DNA from: a virus
Lineage: Duplodnaviria; Heunggongvirae; Uroviricota; Caudoviricetes
Reading direction: 5' to 3' (one strand)
Length of the DNA stretch: 64,000 bases
IMG/VR virus record: IMGVR_UViG_3300037067_027626
Below the pieces are notes generated by a model that was not told the origin of the DNA, searched no databases, and was given only the letters and a program-made list of their open reading frames with translations. Every line of letters starts with the position of its first letter. The first letter of the stretch is position 1. Both the position numbers and the translations under genes were made by a program. Shown one piece after another: positions 36,831 through 62,753 of the stretch.

Positions 36831-37254
36831 GTTGGATTTTTTAGTGAGACTGTCTAGTAAAATCATTCTGCAATAGGTGGTTAACTGCATACCCTTCTTC
36901 TCGGCTTCTACCTTCAATAACCCCTTTTCTCTCAAGGGCATACGTATGAAAACTACGGGCATGTCTTTCTTTCTATAGACCAATATAACACACCTCTATA
37001 TTTATACTGTGAAAAAACTAGCACATATTTAGCGTGTTGTCAAGTGGTCGTGCGTAAATATTTTTGCCCCAAAATACAATACTATATCACTTTGCTATTG
37101 TATTATTATTTTACTGTGTTATCCTACTACTTAAAAGGTACTACACTTGAATCTAAAGTTGGAGGTCTATTATTTTAAGAATATATGAAGGCTATTTTTG
37201 CATTAATCCTTGCGGCAATCGGACTTTACATAAATAAAATTGTGTCTTTGGGTA

Positions 37255-38566: not shown

Positions 38567-38627
38567 ATTGTAGCCGCCATGAGAGAGTCATTCTCCATGT
38601 AAAGTTGTATCCATTTGTGGTGGTAAA

Positions 38628-43225: not shown

Positions 43226-46200
43226 ATGATAAAAAAACTCCATTACAATAAATATTTGAGGATTTTACTAACCGCCTTTATATTGGCGGTTTTATGTATT
43301 CCCTCTTTACCTTTATTCCATATAAATCTGTTTGATGTGCCAGTTGGTGCGGCTACAAGGGATTTATATTGGATTGGCGGTAGTGGTGATTGGAGCGATA
43401 CGGCAAATTGGTCATTAACATCAGGAAATTCTGATAATAGTTCACCTCAAGTTGTACCAGATTCAGATGATAATGTGTATTTTGACGCTAATTCAGGGTT
43501 TACGGGGATTAGTAGGACAGTAACAATGAATAGTTCTCCTGGTTATTGTCTTGATATGGACTGGACAGGTGCGCCGAATAATCCAATATTTAATAGACAA
43601 AATAATGCGGATTTATATATTTATGGCTCGCTGACCTTGATTGCGAGTATGACATTTGATGCTGTAGCGGCTAATGGTCGAATTGGTTTTCTGTCTACCT
43701 CTGCGGGCGAAACAGTAACCACCGCAGGAGTAAATCTCAACAATGTGTTATACGGTATGGAATTTGCTGGTAATGGTGGTGAGTGGACATTACAGGATGA
43801 GCTGACTGTTTCTAGTATCACACATACTAAAGGCATTTTAGATACCAATGACCAAACAATCAACTGCAAGGGTTTTTTTACTACTGGCAGTAATGCTAGA
43901 GAGTTAATACTAGGTAATTCCACAATAAATATATCGAATACTGGGTACTTTCAATATACTGGTTCTAATTTAACATTGGGTGAGGGAACTTCAAGTATTA
44001 TAACAGATGGTACGTCTGGAACTTGTAAGTTTTATGGTAATGGCGAAACTTATTATGATGTTCAATTAATCAATGTCCACTCATTATCAACTACCGACAA
44101 TAGTCTCATCAGTGGGGCAAATACTTTTACAACTCTAAGTATTAGCGGGGATGCTTCCACTGGATATACTACTAACATAGATGCAAATCAAATCATCACA
44201 GGTACTCTAACTATTGCAGGTGATTCTGCTGTAAACCGTTTATTAATTCGTTCAGATACCATCGGAACGGCACGTACTTTAACAGCCGCAACCGTAACGG
44301 TATCTAATGCGGATTTTCAGGATATAACGGGTGCTGGTACTGCTTCTTGGAATTTATCTGCAATAACGGGGAAATCAGGCGACTGCGGAGGTAATTCAGG
44401 AATTACCTTTACTACTGCCGATAATATGTATTGGAGCAAAAATAACGGGGCATGGACAGACCCCGCTAATTGGTTCTTAGCGACTAACGGCGGCGGTGGT
44501 GCTGGCAGAGTTCCATTACCTCAAGATACTGCAATATTTGACGCAAATTCCTTTGATGACACGGGTAAAATAGTTACCATAGTTGATAATTATAGAGTTG
44601 GAGATATTGACGCTTCGGGTGCTACGTTTGCACCTACATTCGGTAGTGGCGATTTTAATGTATTAGTCTATGGTTCGATAACATGGGGTGCTATGGATAT
44701 TCACGCCAGTATAGATTGGTTCTTTTATAGCAGGTATAGTGAAACATTAACCTCAGCGAGTAAGACTTTCCCTGATATTACAATCGGTAGCACAAGCGGT
44801 GATGGTATAAGCGGTACATTAACCTTGCAAGATGCCCTTACGTCAAGCGGTATCGTAACTTTGAATAGAGGCACACTAGATTTCAACGACCAGAATGTAA
44901 CTATGGCAACATTCGATTCATCTACTAATACCTATACACGTACTTTATCAATGGGTGATGGCGAAATTACAGTAAACTCAACTGCCGCAGTAAATAAATG
45001 GAATATAGCAACAGGGAGTTTCACGCTTAATAAAGATAACTCGACTTTAATCCTAACTAACTCAGGGACTAACGCACAATCAATTACAGGCGGTGGCAAA
45101 ACATATGATGGTTTAACAATCAAAGGTGCTGGTGTTTATACACTAACATTCAATGATGCGAATACATGGAATACAATGTTAATTGACCGTTCTGAAGCAG
45201 CAAAGACAATCGCTGGCAATGTTATTCAAACTGTTACAAATTTAACAATACCAGTTTCAGGAACAACACAAGTAACTATTACTAATGTTGATTTTGTTAA
45301 ATCTTCTGGAACTGTTGCTTTGGGTTATGTGACAATATCAGGTTCAGTTGTCGATGGTGTCGGTAGTGGTGCAGCGTTTTATGCAGGTGCAACTCCACCA
45401 TCGGTTAATGGTGGTTCTAACTCAGGTTGGAACTTTACAGAACCTTCTGACCCTATCTTAACTACTTTAGGGGCAAGTGAAGTATCATTTTACACTGCAA
45501 AATTAAATGGTGTTCTGGATAGTATGGCAGGACAACCTAATGGTTATATTTCTTTTCAATATAGTACAGACCCCGCATATCCTAGTGATTCTACAGTAGT
45601 ATCAAGCGGAGAATATACAACACTCCCAGGTGAGTTCTTTTATAATATTACATCAGGACTTTCCGCAGGAACTACATATTACTTTCGCATAAGATTCTAC
45701 TATGGTACTACTTATGCTTATGGTTCTACGGTGTTTTTTACGACAGCAGGCGGTACTGGTGTACCTACTGTAATAACGGGTTCAGCCACTAATCCCACAT
45801 CAAGCACAATAACTTTACAAGGTGTAGTAACGGATATGGGTGGCTATACTACCGTGAATCTGTACTTTGATTATGGGGTTACTGCTTCTTATGGCGATAA
45901 TATTACTGCTACCGTACCTACGGCAACTGACATAGGTGCTTTCTCTGTTAAATTAACGAATTTACAAATGAAAACCACTTATCATTTCAGGGCAAAAATC
46001 GGTTATATTGTATCAGGTGTAGAAATATTCGCTTATGGTGCTGATGGTACTTTTACAACTACCATAACAAGCGGAACGGATAGTGGTGGTCAGCCTTTAC
46101 CTAATCTTATATCACAGATATTCAATGGAGGAGTATTTAGTTCCTTTCTTGAAAGTAATGATTTATTATTTATAGCGGAAATTGCTAATACTTATGCAGA

Positions 46201-47011
46201 TAACACTACTAATAAATATTATCCTAACGGCAACATTTCTAAATTATTTGTATTACAGTTAGTCAATACCGATGGCAGTACGGTTTTAGCCCAAGTACCC
46301 TTGAGAGATTGGGGCTTAAAACCCATTTCTATATACATGAATGCCTCAACATCAAGTAATATGACTTTGGGCGAAAATTATATATTAAGACTACACGCTT
46401 TATTCACTGCCTCACCACCTACCGATGTAGATTATACACTTCAGGATGACGATTGGTATGGTAATGATATGAACTCCCTTGATTTCTGGTGTGTATCAGT
46501 AGCAGGAGAGATGAATACCTACTATAGTTTATGGGGCAAAACGGGTTCAATGCTCACTAATACCATAGATAAAGGGGCAATCATCAGTCAGGATGGTACG
46601 GGATACTTCGTTGAGGGAATTCCCGAAATAGATTATGTCAGACCCGATTTATTCTATGCGGTTTCCTCTAAACCTATCTTTACTACAGGAACAGGCACAA
46701 ACGCTTTTGCGGCAAACCATATCTGGACTTCACAGGTAGGTACAAAAATTGCCGCAGACTTTACAACATTCGGGGGATTGTTTGATGTAAACGGCTCAGA
46801 AATGATGGGATGGCTAATTGGTCTGATTATCATATTTATCGTGATATTCTGTGTATCGCAGGGAAGCGGTGCTTTGGGCGGTCTTGTGCTGTGCGTTCCT
46901 TTCCTGATTGCGGGCAATCTATTGGGTGCTATAGGTATACAGATAACGGTAGTCGGCTGTATTCTTTGCTCATTTTTCTTTATAAGGCAGTTTATAATTA
47001 AAACGCTATGA
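43226..47011 (+). CDS. giant surface protein (1261 aa) with N-terminal signal/anchor, beta-helix-like G/T/S-rich repeats and C-terminal TM helices
   Basis: WSDTANW and WTDPANW motifs are typical of right-handed beta-helix (PbH1) repeats. The C-terminal ~70 aa form two hydrophobic helices. Confidence 0.45.
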   Translation: MIKKLHYNKYLRILLTAFILAVLCIPSLPLFHINLFDVPVGAATRDLYWIGGSGDWSDTANWSLTSGNSDNSSPQVVPDSDDNVYFDANSGFTGISRTVTMNSSPGYCLDMDWTGAPNNPIFNRQNNADLYIYGSLTLIASMTFDAVAANGRIGFLSTSAGETVTTAGVNLNNVLYGMEFAGNGGEWTLQDELTVSSITHTKGILDTNDQTINCKGFFTTGSNARELILGNSTINISNTGYFQYTGSNLTLGEGTSSIITDGTSGTCKFYGNGETYYDVQLINVHSLSTTDNSLISGANTFTTLSISGDASTGYTTNIDANQIITGTLTIAGDSAVNRLLIRSDTIGTARTLTAATVTVSNADFQDITGAGTASWNLSAITGKSGDCGGNSGITFTTADNMYWSKNNGAWTDPANWFLATNGGGGAGRVPLPQDTAIFDANSFDDTGKIVTIVDNYRVGDIDASGATFAPTFGSGDFNVLVYGSITWGAMDIHASIDWFFYSRYSETLTSASKTFPDITIGSTSGDGISGTLTLQDALTSSGIVTLNRGTLDFNDQNVTMATFDSSTNTYTRTLSMGDGEITVNSTAAVNKWNIATGSFTLNKDNSTLILTNSGTNAQSITGGGKTYDGLTIKGAGVYTLTFNDANTWNTMLIDRSEAAKTIAGNVIQTVTNLTIPVSGTTQVTITNVDFVKSSGTVALGYVTISGSVVDGVGSGAAFYAGATPPSVNGGSNSGWNFTEPSDPILTTLGASEVSFYTAKLNGVLDSMAGQPNGYISFQYSTDPAYPSDSTVVSSGEYTTLPGEFFYNITSGLSAGTTYYFRIRFYYGTTYAYGSTVFFTTAGGTGVPTVITGSATNPTSSTITLQGVVTDMGGYTTVNLYFDYGVTASYGDNITATVPTATDIGAFSVKLTNLQMKTTYHFRAKIGYIVSGVEIFAYGADGTFTTTITSGTDSGGQPLPNLISQIFNGGVFSSFLESNDLLFIAEIANTYADNTTNKYYPNGNISKLFVLQLVNTDGSTVLAQVPLRDWGLKPISIYMNASTSSNMTLGENYILRLHALFTASPPTDVDYTLQDDDWYGNDMNSLDFWCVSVAGEMNTYYSLWGKTGSMLTNTIDKGAIISQDGTGYFVEGIPEIDYVRPDLFYAVSSKPIFTTGTGTNAFAANHIWTSQVGTKIAADFTTFGGLFDVNGSEMMGWLIGLIIIFIVIFCVSQGSGALGGLVLCVPFLIAGNLLGAIGIQITVVGCILCSFFFIRQFIIKTL

Positions 47012-47727
47012 AAAGATTTATACGTGGTTTTGTATTATTACTCATAATCTTGATTGCCTCTGTACCTGTTTTAGCCGCACCAGGGGATGTATCGGGTGTT
47101 ACCGCTATACCTACGGATGATGAAGTTTCCTTAACATGGATTCGTGGCTCATCGTCAAATACTACAATAATAAGATATCTAAAGACAAACTATCCCACAG
47201 ACCCAACAGGTGCTACCGATGCCAGTGTTTCCGCTTATTCAGGTGTCTTGTTCTTTCATACCGAAACAGGACTGACAGGCGGTACGACCTACTTCTTTAC
47301 ATTATGGGCTTATGACGGAACAGACTATAGTGCCAATGCCACTGCCGCACATATGATGGTCACAACTTACGGTACGGTAAGCGAGGGCGATTCTTTCCCC
47401 TCACCAACTTTCCCTGCTTCTTTTAATCAGACCGCCGATTCTTCAGGATGGTTTAATAAGTTACAGCCTTTTACAGGTGCGATAGATTATTTTGCTACCG
47501 ATTGGGCAATGAATAAAGATATTGCAATGAGCTTGGCGGTATGCGTGGTTATCGTGGTGCTCTCCGTTATCTTATATGTAAGATGGAAGAACATTTTTGC
47601 CGCCTATGGCTTGTCTTTTATCTTAGTATTAGGGGCAACCCAGTTGACTTTACTGCCTTTTTGGGCGATATTTGTTATGCTTGGTTTCGGCTTGGGAATA
47701 TGGGGCATAGAACGAGCATATCAATAA
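47008..47727 (+). CDS. signal peptide + FN3-like domain + C-terminal multi-TM protein
   Basis: Has a cleavable-looking signal (VLAAPGD). PGDVSGVTAIPTDDEVSLTW...GTTYFFTLWAYDG is FN3-like. Three C-terminal TM helices follow. Confidence 0.45.
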   Translation: MKRFIRGFVLLLIILIASVPVLAAPGDVSGVTAIPTDDEVSLTWIRGSSSNTTIIRYLKTNYPTDPTGATDASVSAYSGVLFFHTETGLTGGTTYFFTLWAYDGTDYSANATAAHMMVTTYGTVSEGDSFPSPTFPASFNQTADSSGWFNKLQPFTGAIDYFATDWAMNKDIAMSLAVCVVIVVLSVILYVRWKNIFAAYGLSFILVLGATQLTLLPFWAIFVMLGFGLGIWGIERAYQ

Positions 47728-47747: not shown

Positions 47748-48089
47748 ATGAAAACTTCATGGATTATCGGTGTTATGATGCTCTACATATCTATTTTCTT
47801 CTATGGCAGTATAATGACAAATGCAAATACTTTAAGTGGCGAAATGGGGCATATATTTAATTTAGCACAACCTACTGGTCTTGACTTGAGCAATCTCATA
47901 ACTGCGGCGTATTCAGTTTCGACTGAGGTTTGGTACTATATGGTAATATTTATTGAAGCTATATTTTTGTGGTTTCCAGGGCTATGGACAGGCAACTGGT
48001 TCTTTGTATGGCTATTTTTATGTGTACCTATTTGCATAGGTATGATATTTGGTATTATTACTATGTTAAGGGGGTCAAGTAGCGTGTAG
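47748..48089 (+). CDS. small multi-TM membrane protein
   Basis: A 113-aa protein with three to four hydrophobic helices. Confidence 0.4.
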   Translation: MKTSWIIGVMMLYISIFFYGSIMTNANTLSGEMGHIFNLAQPTGLDLSNLITAAYSVSTEVWYYMVIFIEAIFLWFPGLWTGNWFFVWLFLCVPICIGMIFGIITMLRGSSSV

Positions 48090-48305
48090 ATGCCTCAACT
48101 ATTAATGGCTCTTATAATTGCTCTCGTATTTGCGATGTTCGGCTTGTTATTTTTCCCTAGCCTGCATACGATGTTGCTTGGAATTGATACTACGGGCATG
48201 GGATATTTATTAACGGCAGGGATTACCTCTATGCCTTATGTCGTGGTATTCGCTATCGTATATGGTGTAATCCTGATAATCAGCAACCGTAATAATAAAA
48301 TCTAG
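48090..48305 (+). CDS. small 2-TM membrane protein
   Basis: A 71-aa protein. Confidence 0.4.
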   Translation: MPQLLMALIIALVFAMFGLLFFPSLHTMLLGIDTTGMGYLLTAGITSMPYVVVFAIVYGVILIISNRNNKI

Positions 48306-48317: not shown

Positions 48318-51300
48318 TTGGATGCGTTAGAATATTTTAAATCTCAAGAATTGAAATCGCCCGATGCTCCGAAGCCTTTGGTCTATACGGGTGCTCCCAA
48401 TGTCAGCACACCCATAGGTTATTCTCAACCTATGATGGGCGACCAAACACTAGAGCAGTTTCAACAAGATAATGTGCAACTTCAAGACGGTTCGTGGGTT
48501 ACAAAGGAAGAATACGATAAACTATCCGAGGAAGACAAGGCTTATATTCTGGCGAATGGTATAGAAGCCTATAATAAATACAAACAGGAACAACTTGAGA
48601 TATTTGAGGCGGCTCACGTTAAACTCAATGATGAGTCATGGGTATCGAAAGAAGAATATGATAAATTAAGCGAAGAAGATAAAGCCTACTTAATGCAAAA
48701 CGGTATTGAGGCGTTCAATACCTATAAGAATACACAACTTACGGAATTCAAAACTACTCACATTCAACTTGGTGATGAATCATGGGTTTCTAAAGAAGAA
48801 TTCGATAAACTTTCCGAGGAAGATAAAGCCTATTTAACCGCTAATGGGATTGAGGCTTTCAACATCTACAGACAGGCACAATTACAAGAGTTTGAATCTA
48901 CTCATGTGAAATTAAATGACGGTACATGGGTAACGAAAACAGAATACGACAAACTCTCTGAAGAAGATAAGTTATATCTGATAAATAATGGCGTTACCTC
49001 TTACACCGCTATGGTAACGGAACGGTATAATACCGCTAAATCAACACTACAGAATTTTATCAATCCAGACGGAACTCTTAGATTGAATGAAGCGGTTAAT
49101 GCAGGGATAACGGATTTAAGCGTATATAAGAATGCGGGCTATAACGTAACACAGATAGATGTTGATAATATTAAAAATATACCGCAATATGAAGAACCGA
49201 CACCATTACCAACTCCGATTGAACCTCATCCATTTGACCCGACATACGGGAATTACGTATTAACCAAGCCTGATGAAAATGACCCTACTACTTGGATATT
49301 TACCGACCCGATGACAGGCGAGCAGTATGATTATAACGGGAATTACATTGGGAGTATTCCGCCACCAACCCCACCAGCAAATCAGCCGACTGTTGTATCG
49401 CCAACGGAAGTCGCACCTATTCCAGAGACAGAAGCACATCCGTTTGACCCGACATTCGGTAATTATGATTATGACTCTGAAACTGGAATTTATACCGACC
49501 CGATTACAGGGGAACAGTATGATACTAACGGGAAATATCTAGGTAATGTTGCCCCACAAACACTGCCGAATTATACTCCGCAGTTAGTTAATATTTCACC
49601 GACAGCACCTAATGTAGTAGAGGCTTATAATCCCGATAATAATATGGGGCTTACTACCGCACCGTCTTACGGGGCAATAGACATATCTTCGGGAATGATT
49701 TGGGATGGCACAAAATGGATAACCTCTGCCGAAGCAAAAGAGAGAGGGATAGAGTCAAGGGGATATTATGACCCGATGCAACGCAGTGAAGGTGGTCAAT
49801 TAACGGGCGGAAATTACATAATCTCAAACGGTATTTTAATCCCGACTACTTTCGACCCGACTAAAATTGCCCCAAGCAATATTACGATAGAAGGCGATTT
49901 AGGAACAGGTTATGTCATAAAAATAGACGGGAATGTTTTGAGTACCCAAGGTATGACACCCGACCAGGTTACCAGATGGATAGCAGACATGGGCGGAAAT
50001 CAAATGGCAATTATGCAGTGGGTAATGACCGATGTAGGTATGAGAGGCGGTATGGCGGGTGCGGATAATCTTGCTTTAAAGGCTTCGGAAACTTATCAGT
50101 ATCTAACAAATACCTATAATAACTCAACAGGGCAATTACAATATCAGACTGGCGTTACTCTAGGACTGTTTAAAGATACCGATATACCGATATTTAATGA
50201 CGAAGGGAAAATATCAGGGATAATTACATCGGAAATGCAGAAAGATATGTCCTCAGAAATACTAGACATATTAAGGTCGGCAGACAGAAACAGTATTGAC
50301 TCAGTCAATAAAGCCATAGAAATCGCCAATAACTTATATAAAGGCAACGAAATCAACATGGATGATATGTCTTTCCTTGTTGATGTTTTAGGGCAAGAAA
50401 AAGCCGACCAGTGGGTTGCCAATATTAGGGCGAAACTTGCAGAACAACAGGCTATCGCAGATTATAACAACGATTTAGTTACCACTCTTTCAACGAGTAT
50501 ATATAATGATATTTCTAACGGCAGAGAGCCTAACTTCCAATATGTAGCACTCTTAAAGACTCTCTTAGGTGAAGAAGGGGAAAAGATTGTCAATGAGTGG
50601 ATAGATAAAATTACCACTCAGGGCATTAAAATAAAGGCATTATCGAGTAGTATATTAAACGCTATAGAAAACAGTGGTAAGGCAAATCCCGATGATGTGG
50701 CGGAATTAGAGAAATTATTAGACCCACAGGCGGTTGCGGAATGGATAGATAATTTAAAATCCGATAAATTTACTAAGGGATTAAAAGGCACTACACTACA
50801 GCAAGCCTCACAAAATATTTCACAGGTACTTGCCGAAAATCCTGATGCAGAACTGGATGCCAATGATGTTTCGGGTCTTATATGGGGAATGGGGCAAGAT
50901 GAGGCTAATGATTGGATAGAAAAAGTAAGGCAACAGAACAGGGATATAAATATACTATCCGAGAAAATACAGAACGATATTTGGAACGGTAAAGCACCTA
51001 ATCCCGAAGATGTTGCTCAATTGTCTGATTTAGTTACACCTCAAACCGCACAGGCTTGGATAACTACATTATCAGATAAACAAAAAGGTTTTGCAGATAG
51101 TCTAAAAGCCTTACCTCAAGAATTACAGGATGCCTATGCTATGGGCGGAATGGAAGGGTATCTACAGGCGGTAGATGCTTACAATAAAAATCTTGAGGAA
51201 AATTTCACCATAGTAGGGCGAGATGGAAACGGGAATCCTTTATATCTATCCAATACTGAACATGTCGCATTAATGGATAGGTTATCCAAAGACCCTGATG

Positions 51301-54300
51301 GGTTTAATATTTATCAAGAAAGAGGGCTTCAGGGATATTATCAATATGTAGTAGATAGAGAGAAATTACTTGGGGAATACGGAATAATACAAGATGGTAA
51401 AATCAATATAAATAATCTCACTAATAGTGTCAAAGGTGGGCTTGTAACTGCGAGTTTTGTGGCAGGTGGTACAGGATTATCGGTAGATGATATTAATAAA
51501 ACAGTTAATGCTGTAGATAAACTTAGACTTGATGGCTATATGTCTATGGATGGTAGTTCCATAAATGTCTATAAAATTATTATGGATGGTGGCAAAGATA
51601 TAAATTACGCCAAGGCATTACTTGGTGAGGATATAATTAATCAATACGAAGCTGACATTCAAAACCAATATTCTGCACAAAGAAGCCTAACTTATAGCCT
51701 ATTACCCTTTGCGACTAACAATATTGAATTGAGTTCTTTGGGTGTTGAACCAAAACTTACCGATTTAAAACTTACTAATCAAGGCTTAACTAATTTCCTT
51801 GTGGCAAATAATAACTCTCAAGAAGCACGACAAAAGTTAAAAGATGCAGGATTTACCGAAGAAGACATAAAAGATGTCTCTATAAAAGCCCAAACAACTA
51901 TTGATTCTTTAAATAATATTCAAACAAAATTAAATAATAAAACATTGGCTCGCACAGAACATGAAGCATTAACAAATGCTATGAAACTCAATGGTGCGGA
52001 GTTAGAGTTTAAAGGTGGTATTTATTACGCAAACGGTCAGGAATTACCGCAGAATGTTTATGACTATTTAGACCGCACAATTCAAATATGGAATACCTTA
52101 TCGGATGAACAAAAGGCTTTAGTATCGCAGACATACGATGCTGATGAATTTAAGGGTAATCCATTTGCTGAGTTTATTAATACTACTAATATAGCGTCTG
52201 CAAATAATATTCCTTTACAGTTAATCACATCACCTATATCAATAATTGGTACTCCCATAGCTAAAGTTACAACAGGGCAAAATACTACACCTTTGGAATG
52301 GGCTGAAGCGGGTGCTATGGCAGTTATTATCGCCTTGAGTTTGGGTGGCGGTGTTGTACTGGGAACTGCCAGAGGTGCGGTAGTAGCCAGTGGGGATATT
52401 ATAGGTGGATTAGGTAGTAAAGTCGGGTTAGGAACAGCAGGGAAAGTAATAACTTACGGATTAGAAACTGGTGCAACTAGCATATTTGTTGCACCTACTA
52501 TTCCTGTAATACTAGACCCGAAAACATCGGCGTTAGATAGAAATGTGGCGATTGCCTTTGATGTATTAATGATAGGCGGTTTATTGTTAGGGGGTCATAG
52601 CCTTGCTAAATCCATTACCGAAAGTGTTAAAAAAGGAAAGGCTATCCCTGTTAATATCGCTAAAGAAGCAGAAACACAAAACAAAATATTAAATACTGTT
52701 ATTCAGGCAAATAAGGATTTCATTAGTAAGGAATTAATTAAAGACCCTATACAGGCACAAAAACTAGAGATTGCCTATAATAACATGGCAAAAGCCATAG
52801 ATGATTATTCTAAAACTTCACTAGAGTTAAAGCAAACACAAAAAGCTATAAGTGATATAGAGTTTGCTAAAAATCCAGCAGAATTAGACCTGCTTAATAA
52901 ATTAAAAGCGAAAGCAGATGATTTAACCATAAAGTTAAATGGGTTACAAAAACCCTTGGATAGTTCAGTAAAATATTATAATGATTTGTTGGGCAAAAAT
53001 TTAATCGGTGCACCACCAGAAGTAATTTCCGCATTAGATGAAATGCCTAAAACAATCAGGACACAAGTAGATGCCGTAACAACTGAAATAGTAGCACCAA
53101 GAAATATGGAATCTATAGCTAGAGATATTACTGATGTATCAAATCAAAAGGATTATATCAGTGATTATCTAAAGAATAATAAAGTTACCACACAAGAACT
53201 GATGGATTACAATAGAATATTAGACGACTTACAATCGCAACTTGCTTCGTTAGAGAAAGAGTCAAGATTAAAATTCTTGGAAACTGGTGAAATAATAAAA
53301 ACCACAGAAGGCGGATATGAGATAGAAGCCAAATCATTACAACAAAGATTGCTTGATATAAATAAAGATATTGAAACATTAAAGAAAACATCAACCTCTA
53401 CATTAAATCCACCGTTAGAAATGGCAATCGGTAAGGTTACTATAGAAAGGGATATATTTGAGGGGATTCAACGGACTACCGAGACAGTAGATAAAACTGG
53501 TAGAAAAAGTTATGGTTATATCCTAGAACAGTTAAATCAAAATCTTAATGATTTAATAAAAATATTAGATGATTCGGGGTTGCCTAAAGAAAGGTATGTC
53601 GATGTTATCTTGGATTTCTCTAAAGGTATAAGACTGAAAGACGTAAAACTCTTGAATTCAGCTATTGCTAAATTACAACTAGAGGCAGGGAAATTACCAC
53701 CGCAAGCAAAATTACTTACAGACGCTAAAATAAAATTATTAGGTACTTACGCTGATGATGTTTTGAGCCGTTTTAAGGGTGTTGATACTTTTACAAATCC
53801 CATAAAAAGTAGTACGGGTGATATATTCAGGGCTGTTAAAGATGTTGACTACGACAGAATAATTAATGAAAACATTAAAGCACAAGCCGAGAGAATAGTT
53901 TACGATAGGATTAGTAAATTAGTTGAAAGATTACCGTCTAATATAGGTAGGCGGAAGATGGCAGAGATATTGGATTATCTTAAAAAAACAACTTATGATG
54001 ATAAATATTTTACGGAAAATTATGGTGGGAAATATAAGAATTTAGACGAATTCTTGGATATAGAGAAAATAGAGGCTGAACTGAGGGAAGAATTAAAAAG
54101 ACGCAAAGAAATAGAGGAAATGAAAGCGGATATAGCTTCGCATGAGGCAGAAAAGGCTAACGCTGATAGATTTAAGGATAGTGTTAGTAATCCTGATTTG
54201 AAAAAGAAGTTGGAAGATTACTCCAATAACTTTAAAAAAATAATAGAAGAAAAGAAGAAACAAGTACAAACAGCCGAAGCCAATAAGACAATACAAACAA

Positions 54301-56759
54301 TTAGGGTTATTACACCTGAAGAAGAAGCAAATTTACCTAAACCAACCGTTATGGAAAAGGCTGGAGAATTATCTAAAGTAGAAGAAAAAGAGAAAACATT
54401 ACAAGAAAAATTAGATGAGGCTAAGGCTAAAGAAGAAGCAGAAAGAAAAGTAAAGGAAGCCAAGAGAAAATTAGAAGAAGAAAAAGCCGCTACGGAAAAC
54501 CATGAGGATATAAGAAAGAAATATGGTCTATCATCTAGTTATATTCCGAGAAGATGGGAAGAAACTCCTGTTACAGTACAGCCAAAGACGACCTTTACAC
54601 CTAGTGAAACTCCGTCTACTGAACCGAGTATAACTCCATTAATAATACCTGAACCAGAAGTAGAACCTACGGAAGTTCCTTCTACTGAACCCGTACCTAC
54701 CAGAGAACCTAATCCATTTGAAATTCCCGATAACCCCTTTGATTTTCCAGAGGTTATACCTACGACTACACCTGTTACTACCCCTGAAACAGAGCCAGTA
54801 GAAATACCCGCCGAAAAACCATCACCCAAAGAAACTCCCGTAGAAATTCCTACGGTAACACCAATTAAAACACCAGAGGGGATACCTGCTGAATCTCCAG
54901 TAGTAACTCCAGTAGAAACACCAATAGAGTTACCCGCAGAAACGCCGATTGAAACCCCAGTAGTTACTCCTATAGAGTCTCCTGTAGAAACACCTATTGT
55001 AACTCCTGAGATTACACCAATAGAAGTAACCGCAGAAGTACCGCTAGAGATTCCTGTTGTCAGTGAGGAAATAGAAACAAAAACTCCTACTGAAGTTATT
55101 ACAGAGACTACTACTGAGAATAAAGTAATTGAAGAAACAGTTAAAAAACTACCGAAACCGCCTTTTATTATGCCTACTATTGAGGAAGGCGGCTTACCCA
55201 AGGATAAACAAGGACTAAAAGGCACTTTCCAGTGGCGGCAAGGAATTTACTATGAAGTCATTCCGCCACCATATGATAAAATATACCATTTAACACGACC
55301 TCTACCTGGGACTACGAAATTTGCAACTGGTCGTGGGAGTGCATATAAAACACTTGAATGTCTCTATGGCAAGCCCGAAAAAGATGTTGATTTGGATTTA
55401 GGATGGGCAAAAGTTTCTATAAAAACTAAAGGCGGTCAATTACATATGTCCTTTGGCGGTGGTAAGGAAGCTATAGAATCAAGATGGGCAGGAGAAAAAG
55501 CCAGAGATATAGAACGTAATATAGATAAAGGCATAGAACCTTATGAGGAATTAAAAGAAAGAGTTGAAGCACTAGAAAGTGGCGGTGCTCCACCTGTTCC
55601 ACCCGAAGAACCACCTATTACTGCGGTTAGCCCTGAAGAACCCGAAGAAATAGCGTCTAGCATAGAACCGCAAGAAGAAGTTAAAGAAGGATATGTACGT
55701 CTTTATAGAGTAGAAAGAAAAGGTGAACATAGAACTAATTTACCTTTTGGGACACCTGAAGAACTAAGCGGGCGTTGGTTTACTGATGACCCCGAATTAG
55801 CCAGTTGGTATTATGAAAGATTACCTGCTGGTAGAAATTTGATGTTTGTAGATGTTCCAATCGAAGTAGCAGAAAAAAATAAAATAGTTAATTTACCTGC
55901 TACTCACAAAGCACAGATTTCTAAATCGCCAAATAAGGAATATATATTACCGCAAGAGTTAGTTGATAAATCCAAAAAGATGAGTGCTTACAATTTACCG
56001 ATAGAAACACCTGAAGAAGAAATTACCGAAGAATCAGAAATTGATAATCTATTTAAAGGGCAAGAAAACTTGTGGGAAGGAACAGCAAGATATAAAAATC
56101 TATCAGACCACGAAAAAGACTCTTATGATTTTAGTGAAATTCCAGAGGGAGAAATTAGTGAGAAAATTCCAAGAGGTTTAAGTAAGAAACAAGAACCCCC
56201 AAGAGGCTTACAGAAAATGGAATTGCCCCAATATAAAAGTGGTAGAATAAAGGTCTATTTAGTAAATGGGGATTATGTAAGAAGCGTAATGAGCAAAGAA
56301 AATCCAGAGGCGATTGATTTTACCCAAGGGAACAATTTCATGGTGGGAAGCTACGTTCCTAATTTGGAGATATGGATTGATAAGGCTAACTCATTAACAG
56401 ATAGAAAAGCAACCTTATTACATGAATTTAGGGAAGTCCGTGATATGCAGGAAGGTACGGAATATGAGGATGCTCACAGTGATGCCGCTAACCCACTAGA
56501 ATTGGAAGCAAGACATAATGTAAGTAAATTAGATGAGATGCTTAAAGATGAGATAAGCCGAGCCTATGTTTCGCCCAAGAAAAAACAGAGAATCAAGATA
56601 CCTGATGAAAACGGTAATGAGGAAGAATATATTCCAGTATCTTATTTAAGAAGGGTGGGCGGAAAACCCAAGATAGTAGAAGATAATAAAGATAGAATCG
56701 CCACACGGTATTATTTAGGGAAACCGATTAAACCTGTAATTGAGGATGTAAATTTATAA
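48318..56759 (+). CDS. giant 2813-aa protein, tape-measure-like
   Basis: The N-terminus carries four 43-aa repeats (WVTKEEYDKLSEEDKAYL.NGIEA.N.Y). The centre has glycine-zipper TM segments and long coiled coils. A proline-rich TP[IV]ETP repeat region lies near the C-terminus. The C-terminal globular part contains HEFRE. Confidence 0.4.
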   Translation: MDALEYFKSQELKSPDAPKPLVYTGAPNVSTPIGYSQPMMGDQTLEQFQQDNVQLQDGSWVTKEEYDKLSEEDKAYILANGIEAYNKYKQEQLEIFEAAHVKLNDESWVSKEEYDKLSEEDKAYLMQNGIEAFNTYKNTQLTEFKTTHIQLGDESWVSKEEFDKLSEEDKAYLTANGIEAFNIYRQAQLQEFESTHVKLNDGTWVTKTEYDKLSEEDKLYLINNGVTSYTAMVTERYNTAKSTLQNFINPDGTLRLNEAVNAGITDLSVYKNAGYNVTQIDVDNIKNIPQYEEPTPLPTPIEPHPFDPTYGNYVLTKPDENDPTTWIFTDPMTGEQYDYNGNYIGSIPPPTPPANQPTVVSPTEVAPIPETEAHPFDPTFGNYDYDSETGIYTDPITGEQYDTNGKYLGNVAPQTLPNYTPQLVNISPTAPNVVEAYNPDNNMGLTTAPSYGAIDISSGMIWDGTKWITSAEAKERGIESRGYYDPMQRSEGGQLTGGNYIISNGILIPTTFDPTKIAPSNITIEGDLGTGYVIKIDGNVLSTQGMTPDQVTRWIADMGGNQMAIMQWVMTDVGMRGGMAGADNLALKASETYQYLTNTYNNSTGQLQYQTGVTLGLFKDTDIPIFNDEGKISGIITSEMQKDMSSEILDILRSADRNSIDSVNKAIEIANNLYKGNEINMDDMSFLVDVLGQEKADQWVANIRAKLAEQQAIADYNNDLVTTLSTSIYNDISNGREPNFQYVALLKTLLGEEGEKIVNEWIDKITTQGIKIKALSSSILNAIENSGKANPDDVAELEKLLDPQAVAEWIDNLKSDKFTKGLKGTTLQQASQNISQVLAENPDAELDANDVSGLIWGMGQDEANDWIEKVRQQNRDINILSEKIQNDIWNGKAPNPEDVAQLSDLVTPQTAQAWITTLSDKQKGFADSLKALPQELQDAYAMGGMEGYLQAVDAYNKNLEENFTIVGRDGNGNPLYLSNTEHVALMDRLSKDPDGFNIYQERGLQGYYQYVVDREKLLGEYGIIQDGKININNLTNSVKGGLVTASFVAGGTGLSVDDINKTVNAVDKLRLDGYMSMDGSSINVYKIIMDGGKDINYAKALLGEDIINQYEADIQNQYSAQRSLTYSLLPFATNNIELSSLGVEPKLTDLKLTNQGLTNFLVANNNSQEARQKLKDAGFTEEDIKDVSIKAQTTIDSLNNIQTKLNNKTLARTEHEALTNAMKLNGAELEFKGGIYYANGQELPQNVYDYLDRTIQIWNTLSDEQKALVSQTYDADEFKGNPFAEFINTTNIASANNIPLQLITSPISIIGTPIAKVTTGQNTTPLEWAEAGAMAVIIALSLGGGVVLGTARGAVVASGDIIGGLGSKVGLGTAGKVITYGLETGATSIFVAPTIPVILDPKTSALDRNVAIAFDVLMIGGLLLGGHSLAKSITESVKKGKAIPVNIAKEAETQNKILNTVIQANKDFISKELIKDPIQAQKLEIAYNNMAKAIDDYSKTSLELKQTQKAISDIEFAKNPAELDLLNKLKAKADDLTIKLNGLQKPLDSSVKYYNDLLGKNLIGAPPEVISALDEMPKTIRTQVDAVTTEIVAPRNMESIARDITDVSNQKDYISDYLKNNKVTTQELMDYNRILDDLQSQLASLEKESRLKFLETGEIIKTTEGGYEIEAKSLQQRLLDINKDIETLKKTSTSTLNPPLEMAIGKVTIERDIFEGIQRTTETVDKTGRKSYGYILEQLNQNLNDLIKILDDSGLPKERYVDVILDFSKGIRLKDVKLLNSAIAKLQLEAGKLPPQAKLLTDAKIKLLGTYADDVLSRFKGVDTFTNPIKSSTGDIFRAVKDVDYDRIINENIKAQAERIVYDRISKLVERLPSNIGRRKMAEILDYLKKTTYDDKYFTENYGGKYKNLDEFLDIEKIEAELREELKRRKEIEEMKADIASHEAEKANADRFKDSVSNPDLKKKLEDYSNNFKKIIEEKKKQVQTAEANKTIQTIRVITPEEEANLPKPTVMEKAGELSKVEEKEKTLQEKLDEAKAKEEAERKVKEAKRKLEEEKAATENHEDIRKKYGLSSSYIPRRWEETPVTVQPKTTFTPSETPSTEPSITPLIIPEPEVEPTEVPSTEPVPTREPNPFEIPDNPFDFPEVIPTTTPVTTPETEPVEIPAEKPSPKETPVEIPTVTPIKTPEGIPAESPVVTPVETPIELPAETPIETPVVTPIESPVETPIVTPEITPIEVTAEVPLEIPVVSEEIETKTPTEVITETTTENKVIEETVKKLPKPPFIMPTIEEGGLPKDKQGLKGTFQWRQGIYYEVIPPPYDKIYHLTRPLPGTTKFATGRGSAYKTLECLYGKPEKDVDLDLGWAKVSIKTKGGQLHMSFGGGKEAIESRWAGEKARDIERNIDKGIEPYEELKERVEALESGGAPPVPPEEPPITAVSPEEPEEIASSIEPQEEVKEGYVRLYRVERKGEHRTNLPFGTPEELSGRWFTDDPELASWYYERLPAGRNLMFVDVPIEVAEKNKIVNLPATHKAQISKSPNKEYILPQELVDKSKKMSAYNLPIETPEEEITEESEIDNLFKGQENLWEGTARYKNLSDHEKDSYDFSEIPEGEISEKIPRGLSKKQEPPRGLQKMELPQYKSGRIKVYLVNGDYVRSVMSKENPEAIDFTQGNNFMVGSYVPNLEIWIDKANSLTDRKATLLHEFREVRDMQEGTEYEDAHSDAANPLELEARHNVSKLDEMLKDEISRAYVSPKKKQRIKIPDENGNEEEYIPVSYLRRVGGKPKIVEDNKDRIATRYYLGKPIKPVIEDVNL

Positions 56760-56968: not shown

Positions 56969-57508
56969 TTGAGTGCGGAAAATGTAATTTTAGTATTTGC
57001 TGTGTTATTTGTCTGTTTTATATGGTACTCCATTAATAATCTCAAGAATAAAGTATTGGTGATTTATACCCGTAATACAGGACAGGAAATATCCAAGTTA
57101 GTAAGGCTTCAAGACCGCTACGTAGATTTCGATAATAAACAGTTTACCTTAGTACCCGACAGACATAGATTACATTGGAAATCAGTTTTAGGATTATTCG
57201 GTACATGGATAATTTGCTATCATATTTACTGGTATTCACGTTATCCGTCAGACCCACGCAGATTTGAAGTAACAGTGGATAGTCCCTCCGCCGCACATTA
57301 TATGAATGAGGAGCAATCCTATACCGCTTATAATAAATCAGAAGCCGCCAGAGATACATTAAAGAAACGTGGCGGATTTATGCAGTATCTACCTTATATT
57401 ATAATAGGTATAGTTTTAGTGGTCATTATATATATAGTGTGGACTCAGGGTAAAGATATGACCATTATTAAAGGTGCTTTACAAGATATAATAAACGGAA
57501 CGACTTAA
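56969..57508 (+). CDS. membrane protein with N- and C-terminal TM helices
   Basis: A 179-aa protein. Confidence 0.4.
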   Translation: MSAENVILVFAVLFVCFIWYSINNLKNKVLVIYTRNTGQEISKLVRLQDRYVDFDNKQFTLVPDRHRLHWKSVLGLFGTWIICYHIYWYSRYPSDPRRFEVTVDSPSAAHYMNEEQSYTAYNKSEAARDTLKKRGGFMQYLPYIIIGIVLVVIIYIVWTQGKDMTIIKGALQDIINGTT

Positions 57509-57521: not shown

Positions 57522-58001
57522 ATGGAAGATGAATTAGAACAAGAAAAACGTGATTTAGAAGAAGCTACAGAGATATTTAATGCAAGTTCTGTGGGGAAGC
57601 CCCATTTGAAAGTGGATATGCCCGCAGGTATAAGTAGCGGTAAATCATATTCAGAGAGGGAAGAAGAAACAGGGCAAGCCTCTGATTTAGTGGTGACAAT
57701 GAGGAAACTTTTCCCTAAATTCCCGTACAGGAAATTAGAGGAAGTTTGTTCTGCAATTATGGTAGGTAGGATTCTCCACGATTCTATGTTGCCTAGAGTT
57801 AGATTAACCGTGAATTCCATTGTAAGGGGATGGGATGATAAAGAAGACGGAAGAATGCCGCCCTTCTCTACTATATTAAATCTTGTGACTACGGCTTATG
57901 AGATAGGATTAGGCTCAAAAGGTAGGGAAGATGCGATAGTTTTACATGGTAGTCAAGCTGAAGAAGACCGATTAGAGAAATTAGCTAATACCATGATTTA
58001 A
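57522..58001 (+). CDS. hypothetical acidic protein
   Basis: A 159-aa protein with an AAGGATAAGATAAAATG start context. Confidence 0.4.
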   Translation: MEDELEQEKRDLEEATEIFNASSVGKPHLKVDMPAGISSGKSYSEREEETGQASDLVVTMRKLFPKFPYRKLEEVCSAIMVGRILHDSMLPRVRLTVNSIVRGWDDKEDGRMPPFSTILNLVTTAYEIGLGSKGREDAIVLHGSQAEEDRLEKLANTMI

Positions 58002-58017: not shown

Positions 58018-58839
58018 ATGTCAGAGATAGATGTTGAAGAAAGATTAGAAGAAATAGAAGAACTGCAAGAGCACGAACCGATAGAGAATGCAAAGCAACC
58101 ATTTACAAGTGCCAAGTTGACTATGATTGTCGGTGAGCAGGGTTCGGGTAAATCAACTATTCTGGCGGCAAAGGCAGTAGACGCTACTTATAAAGGTCTG
58201 ACAAGAATTAGGGTATTTTTACCCGATAGGGGTGATGGTCAAGAGCATTACTACGATGTGAAAGCCTCACCTGCTTTAAACGAAGAAGGGAAACCGATAA
58301 TAGGCTATGCCACAATCTATCTACCTAATAAAGAACCTTTTATTGCTCAAGTTCCTGTAAATGCTTATGCTATAGCTGATGGAGTGAGGATTTTTTATAA
58401 CGGGCATTATTACGGAATAAGATATATGCACGTAGAAACCGCCGATATAATTCAGTATATAAATACCGCATTATTCATGGATGGCATCATCAACTATGAT
58501 GAAGGCTATATAGGGGCGAGCAACAGAAGCAGTATGAGTTCGTTGGGGCAGACTATAACGGATTCTATGAACCAAATACGCAAGAGAAGGATACATTTTA
58601 ATATTGCTTCACCGCAAGACGGTCAATTAGACAGAAGATTCAGATTAACCAGAACAGAACGTATTATATGTTCTTATGATGAAGTTAAGGGTGAAGTCAC
58701 CGCAAAAATACAGAAGGCTAAAAAAAGAGAGAAAATAATTTCTTTTGATGCCACATTATATAGACCGTATTTTAATACTAATGAAAGATATAAACTATTG
58801 GAAAGTAAAGTAAGTAAGGCTTACCAAGAAGCTATGTAA
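58018..58839 (+). CDS. P-loop NTPase (FtsK-HerA/Zot-like small ATPase)
   Basis: Walker A GEQGSGKST is at residues ~39-47. A candidate Walker B is GIINYDEGY. At 273 aa it lacks any nuclease domain. Confidence 0.5.
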   Translation: MSEIDVEERLEEIEELQEHEPIENAKQPFTSAKLTMIVGEQGSGKSTILAAKAVDATYKGLTRIRVFLPDRGDGQEHYYDVKASPALNEEGKPIIGYATIYLPNKEPFIAQVPVNAYAIADGVRIFYNGHYYGIRYMHVETADIIQYINTALFMDGIINYDEGYIGASNRSSMSSLGQTITDSMNQIRKRRIHFNIASPQDGQLDRRFRLTRTERIICSYDEVKGEVTAKIQKAKKREKIISFDATLYRPYFNTNERYKLLESKVSKAYQEAM

Positions 58840-58840: not shown

Positions 58841-61800
58841 ATGAGATTTTTTAAGAATAATAAAAAGATAGTCTGCTCAGGCTTAGTTGCTTTATTAATA
58901 GCCGTTACAGTTTTTGTGTCCTCTGCTTCTGTAGGCGTTTCTATTACTTCAAAGGGCGAATATATCTCTTTTTCTGTTAGTCAATTAGCGGTTCAAGCCG
59001 AAATTAAGAATGAATTACCTGCTAAAACTCCAGAACAAATAAAAGCAGCCGCTCTTGATGAATATAAAGGTTCAACATTAACAACTAAATCTACGAATCA
59101 ATACGAAATATCCTATTCTGGAACTGGCTCTAAAATAGAAATAGGCGATTCTGCGAAATCTGCTGATTTTAGACCAGACTTAACTATATCACAGTGGAAT
59201 GGCGAGGCGAGTTTTAAATTAATTGCTCCTATTGATATTGAGGGAAAATCTCAATTATCAGCATCATTTAATTCAATTAATAAATCCATTTCTGCCTCAA
59301 ATGGCGAATGGATATTCGAATATAAAGCCACTGAACCAAAAGAAGGATTTAACGATTATGGCGGACTTGATATATTCATTACCGCTAAATCTAAACCACC
59401 TTCAAACAAAATTTACTTTACATATGATTCCAGTACGGTTACGCCTTATTTACAACCGTCATTAACTCAAGAATATAAAAATGGCTATTCTGAGGAATTT
59501 CAAACAGATATCAAAGTTACTGATACCGAAGTGACTAACTCAAAAACTGGAGATGTTTTAACTTCTCGCCCTGATTATGTGGTTAATTCAATCGCTTTTT
59601 ACGCTGATGGAAAATCCAATTACGTAATAGGCGGAATTAATTATCAGACAGGAAAAGTCGGGCATTTGTATAGAATGCAGATTAATGGGGAATGGTGCGA
59701 TTGGAGTATTGTAGGAAATTACATTGTACTAAACATACCTCAAAAAATACTTGATACAACTACATATCCTATCACCATACAACCGCTAGGAGATACGTTT
59801 GGATATACCAGTGCGGGGGGGACTGCTTTAGAAAAATATACAAATAACTTTATAGGGGGGTTATTTACATCCCCAGCAGATATTTCTACTGCTACAGTTA
59901 ATTCTATTACTGCATGGGTAAAGGAAGGTTATTCGGAAACAGCCTACTTTAAGGGTATGATGGTACTCCAGTCAAATCTTAATATAGTTAGTAACGGGAC
60001 TGGGAGTGCCTCATCCGCCATAACTGGAGTTATGGGTAGTCCAGCCGAAAGAACCAGTGATTTTGCAACTCCACCTACACTCTCTAATTCTACTGCATAT
60101 GTTATAGGGGCAGTATGTACTGCACCAACTGGTGTTAATTTCTATGGTGATACTGTAACTGGGCAAACAAGATACCAACAAATAACAAATAGTTATTCTT
60201 CACCTTCAAACCCAACAACAGCAACTACAACGTCTAACAGGCGAGTTTCCATCTACTGTACCTATACGTCAAGTGCAAGTGTAACAGTAACCTCAATTTC
60301 TCCTGATTATGGTTCAACGTCAGGGGGGGCTTCAGTTAATATTACTGGTACTGGTTTTACTGATGCGACAGGGGCAACCATAGGGGGAGGTGCAGTAACC
60401 AGTTTTTCTGTAGTTAGTGATACTGCTATTACAGGGGTGTCACCATCTGGAACGGCTGGGGCTAAAGATGTTGTTGTTAATGCAACATCAGGTAATGGGA
60501 CTCTAGTAAATGGATTCTATTACGTGCAAGCAGTTACTAATGTTTCAACGGTTGCTGAATGGAAGACTAATAGTTCTGTTCAGTCGGTACGTATTCCATT
60601 TCAAAGTAAAATATTTACAGCCTCTGGAAGAACATGGGTATTCCATTGCGTAGATAATTCGATGTATTTCACATCGTCAACAGACGGGGTAATTTGGAAC
60701 GCAGCCACGTTAATTGCCTCAACTTATTTTGATTATGAATTTGCTTCGCATTGGGATGGTACTCACGTAACAATAGTTTACGCCAAACAGACTGCCAACG
60801 CTCATATGTTTTTTCGCAGAGGATCTCCGCAATCTGATGGAACAATAACATGGGATACCGTAGCTACGGATATTTACACTCCTACAAGTGGATATAGTTG
60901 TGCTGACCCTACGTTGTGTGTAAATTCCAATGGATATGCCTTTATCGGTTTCTGTATGTACGATGGTTCTAAGGGTAATCCTCGTGTTCTGAAAAATGCA
61001 GATAATGATGGTACATGGACTCAGGATACTGATACGGAATTAGATACTAGAGGTATAACAGCATCAAAACCCGAAATGGTTTCTCTCGTGGCGCTCACTT
61101 CGGGTAAAGTTTATGGCATATATGCAATAATATATGCCAGTTCCAACCAAAGAATATATGGTAAACTTTGGGATTCTGGATGGGGTGCTGAGGAAACAAC
61201 CACCACTTCCTATCTCGACCAAGCATATTATGATATGTGGACAGCAATATCTATCGGTGATGATGTCCACCTAGTTTTTAATGAGGATACGACCTCAGAT
61301 TTAATTTATGCAAAAAGGACTTATGGAGCTGGCACGCCCTGGGGAAACGAAGTCACAATTCAGTCAGCGACAACAGACCATACTTGTCCTGCAATTTCAA
61401 CTAACGGCTCTAACTTAACAGTATTCTGGCTAAGTATCTCAACCGATATAGTATATGTAAAAAATTGTATCTCTGATTCTTGGGATGCTGACCCGATAAC
61501 AGTTGCCGATGAATCGACTAACGGAATATTGGGTGCAAGCATTATAAATGTTACCCAAAATGCAACAAATGATATCTTTGGAATTGTTTATGATATTTGT
61601 GTTGCATCTCCGTATTTTACCAGGTATGCAAAGTATGGACTAAGTATTTCAAATACACCGTCTTCAAAAGACCTTGGTGTAGTTGCTGAAAACACAACCT
61701 ATTATGCTTATGGTACTGCCCCCCACAATCCTGTAGTTGATGGGGATTGTACTTTTAGTATATCAAATAACGGGACTACATCTATAGATATTGATATTCA

Positions 61801-62026: not shown

Positions 62027-62097
62027 GTTATTACACTGACTGCGAGGGCTGTCACGTAAAGGTCGAAATCTTGAATACAAAAGGAGGTGAGAAAAAC

Positions 62098-62679: not shown

Positions 62680-62753
62680 AATAGATAGAAGCGGTGCGAA
62701 GCCGTCATGAGACTGAAAGATATTAACTAGACCTCAAATTGGAGAATTTTAAC

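Follow-up and report, generated by a model that had tools for sequence, protein, structure and literature searches.

A giant modular protein encoded beside a pI-like ATPase, and its possible role in a large, probably non-tailed virus

We analysed a stretch of 64,000 nucleotides (nt) from the virus record IMGVR_UViG_3300037067_027626 (the window), centring on a giant open reading frame (ORF), here named A, and on the genes around it. A lies at 48318..56759 on the plus strand, starts with TTG and encodes 2813 amino acids (aa). An AGGTG Shine-Dalgarno sequence stands ~10 nt 5′ of the start codon, and an identical protein of 2813 aa (P0001) is recorded on a 124,964-bp JGI contig. Since 2813 open codons are beyond chance in DNA of 36-40% GC, ORF A is a real gene, as an earlier note on this DNA had proposed from the letters and their translations. 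Judged by its sequence matches, A is a member of a widespread and previously unannotated family of giant proteins.

At the N-terminus, A presents four repeats (aa ~39-235, 48432..49022, plus strand like all features of A) of the type HVKLxDxSWVSKEEYDKLSEEDKAYLxxNGIEAFN, starting at aa 60, 108, 156, and 204. The earlier note had seen these four repeats but gave them a period of 43 aa and called them near-perfect; the period is 48 aa, and the copies are 49-72% identical as protein and 57-71% as DNA. The same repeat type is found in the homologues P0002, P0004, and P0005 and in locus L010, with up to ~17 copies (P0002). In A, the repeats are followed by a Pro-rich region (aa ~290-430, 49185..49607) with a 64-aa duplication (HPFDPTxGNY..DPxTGEQYDxNG) that the earlier note had missed and that occupies aa ~300-430. 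The stretch from aa ~640 to 1320 is mixed and mostly helical.

The hydrophobic segments of A are confined to aa 1328-1430 (52299..52607), and its N-terminus is hydrophilic. This Gly-rich segment (AVIIALSLGGGVVLG ... MIGGLLLGG) shows small-xxx-small spacing and probably forms two to four membrane helices; the central segment with GGLLLGG described earlier is thus confirmed. The sequence flanking it is conserved in locus L001 (TPLEWGEAGAVAVVSALPG). A charged helical stalk, poor in Pro and Gly and with heptad stretches, follows at aa 1431-2080 (52608..54557). It had been described as a coiled coil of about 1000 aa; the helical stalk stands, at ~650 aa, and a crude register test found clear heptads in ~266 of 650 residues. 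Only about one quarter of the protein is coiled-coil-like. The stalk region aligns with P0003 at 30% identity over 44% of the query. Next comes a Pro/Thr/Glu-rich spacer (TPxETP; aa 2081-2290, 54558..55187) of ~210 aa, among them 47 P, 39 T, and 40 E. The TP[IV]ETP repeat of the earlier note is part of it, although not with the ~130 aa assigned then, since the strictly periodic core spans ~100 aa (2137-2236) within the longer rich region. The Pro-rich regions have 18.8% and 22.9% P+G, and more than half of A is non-helical, Pro-rich or globular.

The C-terminus is composite, with acidic or Pro-rich linkers between its parts. Thus, the ~500-aa globular domain of the earlier note does contain the HEFRE motif (aa 2702-2706), but it resolves into three modules and a tail. 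These are a W domain that defines the family (aa ~2295-2420, 55200..55577; FQWRQG..PPPY..PLPGTTKFATGRGSAYKTLE..DLGWA), a 125-aa insert (aa ~2445-2570, 55650..56027), an HExxE...H domain (aa ~2630-2770, 56205..56627; DFTxG..EIWID..LLHEFRE..M..G..Y..AH), and a conserved C-terminal tail (56700..56756; ATRYYLGKPIKPVIEDVNL) with RYYLGK at 2797, for which the family consensus is RYYLGRKLRPxxLG.

The whole protein gave no Pfam match below E=0.04 and no PHROG match at E<=0.01; in these scans there was no tape-measure, tail or chaperone family and no DNA-binding domain. The family was revealed by an exhaustive HMMER scan of 1.84e9 representatives with aa 2290-2813 (524 aa) as a query, where 833 cluster representatives matched at E<=1e-3; a word-indexed search with A retrieved, by one count, only five full-length relatives and, by another, only four partial ones. 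Many of the HMMER relatives are themselves giant proteins of 0.9-3 kaa that share the W domain and the RYYLG tail, with or without the HExxE...H domain. The giant protein is known from landfill, sediment, salt-marsh, and digester metagenomes.

The constant part of the family is a W domain of ~100 aa (WRQG..PPPY..PLPGTYKFAxGKGSAxKTLQV..DxGWA) together with the RYYLGRKLRPxxLG tail. About half of the members contain the ~130-aa domain with DFTxGGH, EIWID, and LLHExxE...AH motifs, which also occurs as stand-alone proteins of 210-250 aa and, elsewhere, fused to XkdF-type protease or GNAT domains. The N-terminal halves are variable, with the 48-aa repeat recurring in some members, and relatives carry a comparable spacer N-terminal to the W domain. 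The insert at aa 2445-2570 is peculiar to A and one other homologue, P0125; in line with this, the gap between the W domain and HEF is 210 aa in A vs. 10-130 aa typically in the family. The common build is therefore variable N-terminal repeats, a Gly-rich hydrophobic segment, a stalk, a Pro/Thr spacer, the W domain, an optional HExxE...H domain, and a basic tail.

Searches with tblastn, using the A C-terminus and a W-domain relative, found no match among 50,697 phage and archaeal-virus records or plasmids, and the IMG/VR scans returned no relatives. The GTDB genome scan retrieved only a 2.7-kb fragment of a metagenome-assembled genome, and since this is the sole match we draw no host from it.

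We modelled the C-terminus with AlphaFold2 (AF2) from a 32-sequence alignment. The W domain was predicted as a small beta-rich domain followed by helices, with a predicted local distance difference test (pLDDT) score of ~90, and it had no Pfam, PDB or fold match. The HExxE...H domain reached a pLDDT of ~97 with strands followed by three helices: in the model, a beta-sheet precedes one helix bearing HExxE and another bearing the His. Residues H2702, E2703, E2706, M2710, and H2720 are near-invariant. This layout is what a minimal zincin-like peptidase would be expected to look like, so that the domain is a putative metallopeptidase and a new candidate enzyme family. A Peptidase_M78 match in two of 30 members (E=0.003, weak) and weak hints of phrog_87 ‘metallo-protease’ and of CapP point the same way. 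The zincin-like peptidases IrrE/ImmA (M78) and CapP have the canonical HExxH, whereas A has HExxE; there is no significant sequence or fold match between them, and the small size and strand order of the domain are unlike any solved structure. The 125-aa insert was modelled with low confidence and few strands. We considered it as an ADP-ribosyltransferase and rejected this, for there was no Pfam or PDB match either; its best PDB profile match, a CBM20 starch-binding domain, was not significant (E=0.12). Searches of each C-terminal module against PDB sequences with phmmer and profiles gave nothing significant.

Around A, we compared by BLASTP the ORFs of the window with those of ten related loci (L001, L002, L003, L006, L010, L011, L015, L018, L023, and L024), recovered through the W domain, the ATPase described below, and direct look-ups. 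The genes form a conserved cluster, with neighbours here named B to K. In relatives, the order is one to three copies of a small coat-like gene (fam5), a zinc-ribbon protein, A, B, C, D, E, F, G, H, and I/J. The fam5 proteins have 57-68 aa and two hydrophobic helices, and their one to three tandem copies lie 5′ of the giant gene; the zinc-ribbon protein that follows them is also small. A stands between the coat gene and the genes for membrane proteins and the pI-like ATPase in L002, L006, L010, L011, L015, L018, and L024. In the window, B-E sit between the coat gene and A, and the order is B, C, D, E, A, F ... J.

All neighbours from B to K lie on the plus strand. Scans of the neighbours against Pfam and PHROG yielded little of use. 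Signal peptides and transmembrane (TM) helices of B, C, D, E, F, I, J, and K are predictions from a Kyte-Doolittle window scan and inspection of the N-termini by eye. Protein B (43226..47011, 1261 aa) is adhesin-like, with a signal peptide, fn3-like repeats, and a C-terminal multi-TM anchor; across the cluster, B has 0.8-1.6 kaa and the same succession of signal peptide, ectodomain, and anchor. Its paralogue C (47008..47727, 239 aa) combines a signal peptide, an fn3-like domain, and a C-terminal TM bundle. D (47748..48089, 113 aa, multi-TM) and E (48090..48305, 71 aa, two hydrophobic helices) are conserved in the module, and so is the soluble protein G (57522..58001, 159 aa). Between A and G lies F (56969..57508, 179 aa), with TM helices at both termini. 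H (58018..58839, 273 aa; 190-330 aa across the cluster) is a Zot/pI-like P-loop ATPase without a TM domain. It is followed by I (58841..62026, 1061 aa), with a signal peptide and a TIG/IPT domain, by the secreted protein J (62023..62679, 218 aa), related to the C-terminus of I, and by K (62739..63551, 270 aa), which has a lipobox, a Thr-rich mucin-like linker, and a domain of the B/C family according to single-linkage BLASTP clustering.

On the 3′ side, the module is adjoined by genes for sugar activation and lipid-linked glycosylation in L001 (17406-21194), L023 (14639-19083), L024 (14732-16853), and L021 (17333-23185), the last being the same element just right of the window. The set comprises GlmS, a PMM-like protein, GNAT, a cytidylyltransferase, GT4, GtrA, GT2, and a TMEM260-like GT-C. 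These genes fit glycosylated Pro/Thr-rich surface proteins, and the arrangement suggests that the element itself glycosylates its Thr/Pro-rich secreted proteins.

Two further observations concern small ORFs of this arm. Just 5′ of B, at 42736-43221 (plus strand), lies a 161-aa helical protein extremely rich in Lys, Arg, and Glu; it has no family match and may be a DNA-condensing or nucleoprotein candidate. Besides, two paralogous ribbon-helix-helix-like proteins of 46-51 aa (..KxGMxLxTYxRMILL..) are encoded directly 3′ of A (56826-56966, plus strand) and at the intergenic edge (36828-36983, minus strand), and homologues lie 5′ of the module in L010 and L015.

The AF2 model of H (pLDDT 85.5) had as its top Foldseek match in the PDB the Zot N-terminal domain (2r2a, E=7.9e-9), ahead of RecA/RadA folds at 1.7e-5. 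A 35-homologue profile of H against PDB sequences also ranked 2r2a first (E=0.011), and Pfam Zot matched two of the six H members. Against the single M13 pI sequence, hhalign was marginal (Prob 25%, E=7.8e-4). In tblastn against phage and archaeal-virus records, the best match of H was a protein of the Lokiarchaeota virus WyrdV1, annotated as ‘AAA+ ATPase related to morphogenesis (pI) proteins of filamentous phages’ (6e-3), and hhalign aligned both with Prob 97% and E=1e-10. We conclude that H, which contains no hydrophobic segment, is homologous to the pI/Zot-like ATPase of wyrdviruses.

The morphogenetic module of wyrdviruses consists of major capsid proteins (MCPs), an adhesin, membrane proteins, and a pI-like ATPase, and the analogy to inovirus pI has led to the inference that they are extruded or bud (Medvedeva et al., bioRxiv 10.1101/2021.07.29.453957). 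In WyrdV1 (MZ666939), the order is two MCPs, a small ORF, the adhesin, three small TM proteins, a B277-like protein, a small ORF, and the ATPase. Its His1-like MCPs have 81 and 86 aa with two hydrophobic helices each, and its 973-aa adhesin, with a signal peptide and a C-terminal TM bundle, has the same architecture as B. Our protein F gave a weak match to the WyrdV1 ‘fusellovirus B277-like’ protein (E=0.0027, Prob 11%). Since coat and adhesin lack significant similarity, the homology of the module rests on the ATPase, and the remaining likeness is one of architecture and gene order. An earlier idea, a resemblance to pleolipovirus or tectivirus modules, gave way to the WyrdV1 match.

A coat-like gene also heads the plus-strand structural arm of the window, at 37185..38600, where it encodes a protein of ~66 aa with two hydrophobic helices. 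It is interrupted by six tandem group I introns of ~200 nt each (RF00028). Two of the six score above the gathering threshold of RF00028, and the other four are weaker (E 3e-8 to 0.04); the whole-window Rfam scan at the gathering threshold had missed them. The six copies align at 64% mean column identity. The splice model places a U ahead of each 5′ splice site and lets every intron end in G; under it, in-silico splicing joins seven mini-exons into a product that runs colinear with the L024 fam5 coat-like protein. The predicted junctions extend from 37232/37434 to 38360/38565, and those around introns 4 and 5 are approximate in position. The structural arm of the window is thus headed by a coat-like gene after all, in a form heavily split by introns. 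The coat-like genes share an upstream GGAGGT Shine-Dalgarno sequence, which does not discriminate between bacteria and archaea.

Taking these data together, we favour, with moderate confidence, the reading that A is a lineage-specific structural or entry component, encoded in the morphogenetic module of a dsDNA virus that has no tail, assembles at the membrane, and buds or is extruded. Modules of this type occur in spindle-shaped wyrd/fusello-like viruses and, as more remote cases, in filamentous inoviruses. The fixed place in the operon, between the coat-like genes and those for adhesin-like proteins, membrane proteins, and the ATPase, and the invariant W domain and tail, next to a variable remainder, fit a structural component that docks by its conserved end. 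In this proposal, for which we infer the topology of A, its location in the virion, and its enzymatic activity, the central hydrophobic hairpin would anchor A during an assembly driven by the pI-like ATPase at the cell membrane, and conserved partners in the virion would be bound by the invariant W domain and tail. Variable modules would be held out by the long stalk and by the Pro/Thr spacer, which is probably glycosylated. They comprise the N-terminal repeats, to which A adds the putative metallopeptidase and the 125-aa insert, and would bind or cut the host envelope at entry. Thus, A would be a functional analogue of inovirus pIII or fusellovirus VP4, and not a ruler of tail length. A membrane-anchored virion or host-surface protein was the alternative offered in the earlier note, and it comes close to what the gene context indicates.

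Several points weigh against this proposal. A lacks an N-terminal signal peptide, and its last hydrophobic helix is followed by the Lys-rich KSITESVKKGK, which under the positive-inside rule suggests a cytoplasmic or internal C-terminal half. The comparison of fam5 with the WyrdV1/His1 MCPs by hhalign is not significant (E=0.12), and BLASTP of B against the WyrdV1 adhesin found no sequence similarity. None of the known spindle-shaped or filamentous viruses has a recognisable homologue of the giant protein among the 50,697 records, and the modelled folds of the W and HExxE...H domains are without a convincing structural neighbour. Moreover, one ORF from the flanks or related loci matches a PHROG ‘tail protein’ family (E=6.7e-6), and the ~46 kb of the 125-kb contig that lie outside our data –which extend beyond the window by ~8 kb on the right (L021) and ~7 kb on the left (L026)– could still encode a capsid and a tail.

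The missing signal peptide and the Lys-rich flank conflict with an external head and make an internal scaffold or ejection role the strongest rival, although we regard it as rather unlikely. A would then be an internal virion protein or ejection device, with the hydrophobic hairpin as an anchor and both large halves cytoplasmic or lumenal, as an even number of hydrophobic helices would permit. Such a device could organise or measure a large genome, insert its Gly-rich helices into the host membrane at infection, and deliver the peptidase and the insert as cargo; the conserved basic C-terminal tail would suit it, and the fusions of HExxE...H to XkdF-type protease or GNAT elsewhere resemble phage ‘polyvalent’ cargo proteins. 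The giant proteins range from 907 to 2813 aa, and the longest are on the longest contigs, but this trend is weak, the contigs are incomplete, and it is confounded by assembly. A Pro/Thr/Glu spacer with lipid-linked glycosylation genes nearby would rather be expected of an extracytoplasmic protein, and A has no match to a DNA-binding domain. As a further rival, A might be a giant, membrane-anchored fibril on the host surface outside any virion, acting alongside the glycosylation genes and remodelling the infected envelope, for example for adhesion, superinfection exclusion or cell-cell contact; a host-surface protein was raised also in the earlier note. The neighbours are indeed secreted or membrane-bound, with fn3, TIG, and mucin-like regions, and genes of sugar biosynthesis come next. 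However, every locus shows strict synteny of A with the coat-like genes and the assembly ATPase, where it heads a structural operon, and the strong conservation of its W domain and tail points to a constant partner in assembly. We hold this explanation to be improbable.

The earlier note had leaned towards a very long tape-measure protein with an effector domain, which would place A in a tailed phage with a C-terminal effector, analogous to T5 pb2. In its favour are the sheer size of A, its coiled-coil stretch, the Gly-rich helices of the hydrophobic segment, and the putative peptidase motif, along with the phage-type replication genes of the left arm (two RepO, DnaC-like, DUF5131, HNH). The family, gene-context, and helicity tests went the other way, and we rejected A as a Caudoviricetes tape measure. 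PHROG scans of 56 further ORFs of the window, and of 60 ORFs from ~15 kb of flanks and the ten related loci, gave no capsid, portal, terminase or tail-tube family among the top 25 families listed; within the same limit, no tape-measure, tail, chaperone or baseplate match supports this reading. The neighbours are integral-membrane and secreted proteins and a Zot/pI-like ATPase, and with respect to B-E, A is placed differently in the window than in its relatives. Finally, the helical stalk is restricted to aa ~1431-2080. The sole reason for which we still grant the tape measure a very small chance is the ~46 kb outside the data.

The rest of the element offers some hints on replication and host. 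The left arm, on the minus strand, encodes two RepO, a DnaC/IstB-like ATPase, DUF5131, PAPS reductase, radical SAM, SPFH, RlaP, and HNH endonucleases. At 5243-7717 (minus strand), two adjacent Phage_rep_O paralogues are followed by the DnaC/IstB-like AAA+ protein; this set represents replication initiation of a bacterial-phage type beside an archaeal-virus-like structural module. Opposite the minus-strand arm, an IS1595 transposase gene is inserted at 16329-17198 (plus strand; DDE_Tnp_IS1595 E=7e-43, with a zinc ribbon), and L015 has a copy 53% identical. That protein had been a candidate replication initiator, which its identification as a transposase ruled out. Next to it in the auxiliary arm, at 17258-18142 (minus strand), lies a gene whose 294-aa product contains a proteasome-subunit-like domain (Pfam Proteasome E=6e-7).

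Between the divergent arms, an ORF-poor region of 30% GC (35060-35730) contains iteron-like direct repeats (AATTCCACATCTT three times and a TTCCCTATT motif three times), together with a 25-nt near-perfect palindrome at 35545-35597. These repeats and the palindrome may mark a replication origin or a regulatory region. Many HNH/NUMOD-type homing-endonuclease genes are also dispersed over both arms (10800-11417, 38658-39681, and 41161-41748), and one homing-endonuclease family occupies differing sites inside the module of relatives (L011 14979-16040, L001 919-1713, and L018 2932-3684).

RepO, the DnaC/IstB-like protein, the HNH (HNH_3) endonucleases, and the six group I introns suggest a bacterial host. 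Archaeal pointers are the link to WyrdV1 and some DUF5131 matches in archaeal viruses. A scan for sigma-70 promoters and terminators showed no enrichment and was uninformative on the host.

More speculatively, and with clear doubt on our side, the giant family might mark a clade, so far unrecognised, of non-tailed dsDNA viruses with genomes of up to at least 125 kb, possibly bacterial to judge by the group I introns, RepO/DnaC-type replication genes, and many HNH homing endonucleases, which form spindle or filament particles at the membrane through a pI-like ATPase and have the giant protein as their signature device for entry or size setting. If true, a virion type deemed specific to archaea would have been carried into bacteria, with a genome size far above that of known members. 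Spindle-shaped and filamentous viruses are known for small genomes, as in inoviruses and wyrdviruses of up to ~20 kb, and here the same ATPase and gene order appear in a contig of at least 125 kb, with a widely distributed extra component that no database names. If A were a virion-end or entry device, it would provide a handle for finding this group of dark-matter viruses, for asking how membrane-extruded particles scale to large genomes, and for testing whether such viruses exist in bacteria.

Among known systems, the T5 pb2 tape measure has a coiled coil, membrane-inserting helices, and a C-terminal metallopeptidase. Tape measures of this type and A are both long, with a coiled coil, hydrophobic helices, and a putative metallopeptidase at the C-terminus. 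A differs from them in its large Pro-rich and globular parts, in the lack of tail-gene context or family match, and in its partners, which are membrane proteins and a pI-like ATPase.

The likeness to inovirus pIII (M13, NC_003287) is one of place and build. In relatives, A occupies the corresponding position, after the coat and before membrane proteins and a Zot/pI ATPase; both proteins are built of modules joined by low-complexity linkers, are anchored in the membrane, and are assembled there by a pI-type ATPase, the last two being our proposal for A. However, pIII has 424 aa, an N-terminal signal peptide, and a C-terminal anchor, whereas A has 2813 aa, no signal peptide, and a central hydrophobic segment, and there is no sequence similarity between them. 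M13 pI has a TM and a periplasmic part that H lacks, and the genome that encodes A is large dsDNA, unlike that of the M13 inovirus.

Further known systems are the IME1 elements of Dehalococcoidia, proposed as bacterial dsDNA budding or filamentous viruses, with a pI-like ATPase, SSV1 VP1-like small hydrophobic proteins, and adhesin-like proteins with signal peptides and TM helices (Nesbo et al., bioRxiv 10.64898/2026.09.15.751708). They and the element of A are both dsDNA without tailed-phage hallmarks and follow the same module logic, a likeness drawn by description only. IME1 elements have 21-28 kb and integrate by a tyrosine recombinase, with no giant protein described, and the element of A is five times larger.

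The module comes nearest to those of wyrdviruses and other spindle-shaped viruses (Fuselloviridae, Halspiviridae), and the TM-less pI-like ATPase of WyrdV1 is homologous to H. The wyrdvirus genomes of 15-20 kb lack a giant protein, the W domain, and the HExxE...H domain, and the likeness of their coat and adhesin to fam5 and B is architectural only. The replication genes (RepO, DnaC-like) and the six group I introns of our element look bacterial, unlike those archaeal viruses. The large spindle viruses of ANME-1 likewise divide into a structural arm and an enzymatic one, with genes for PAPS reductase and radical SAM in the latter (bioRxiv 10.1101/2022.07.04.498658), and the largest spindle-virus contig cited there has 72.6 kb vs. 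at least 125 kb for the element of A. With wyrdviruses, this element shares the order of two-helix coat proteins, adhesin, small membrane proteins, and ATPase, as well as carbohydrate-modifying genes nearby.

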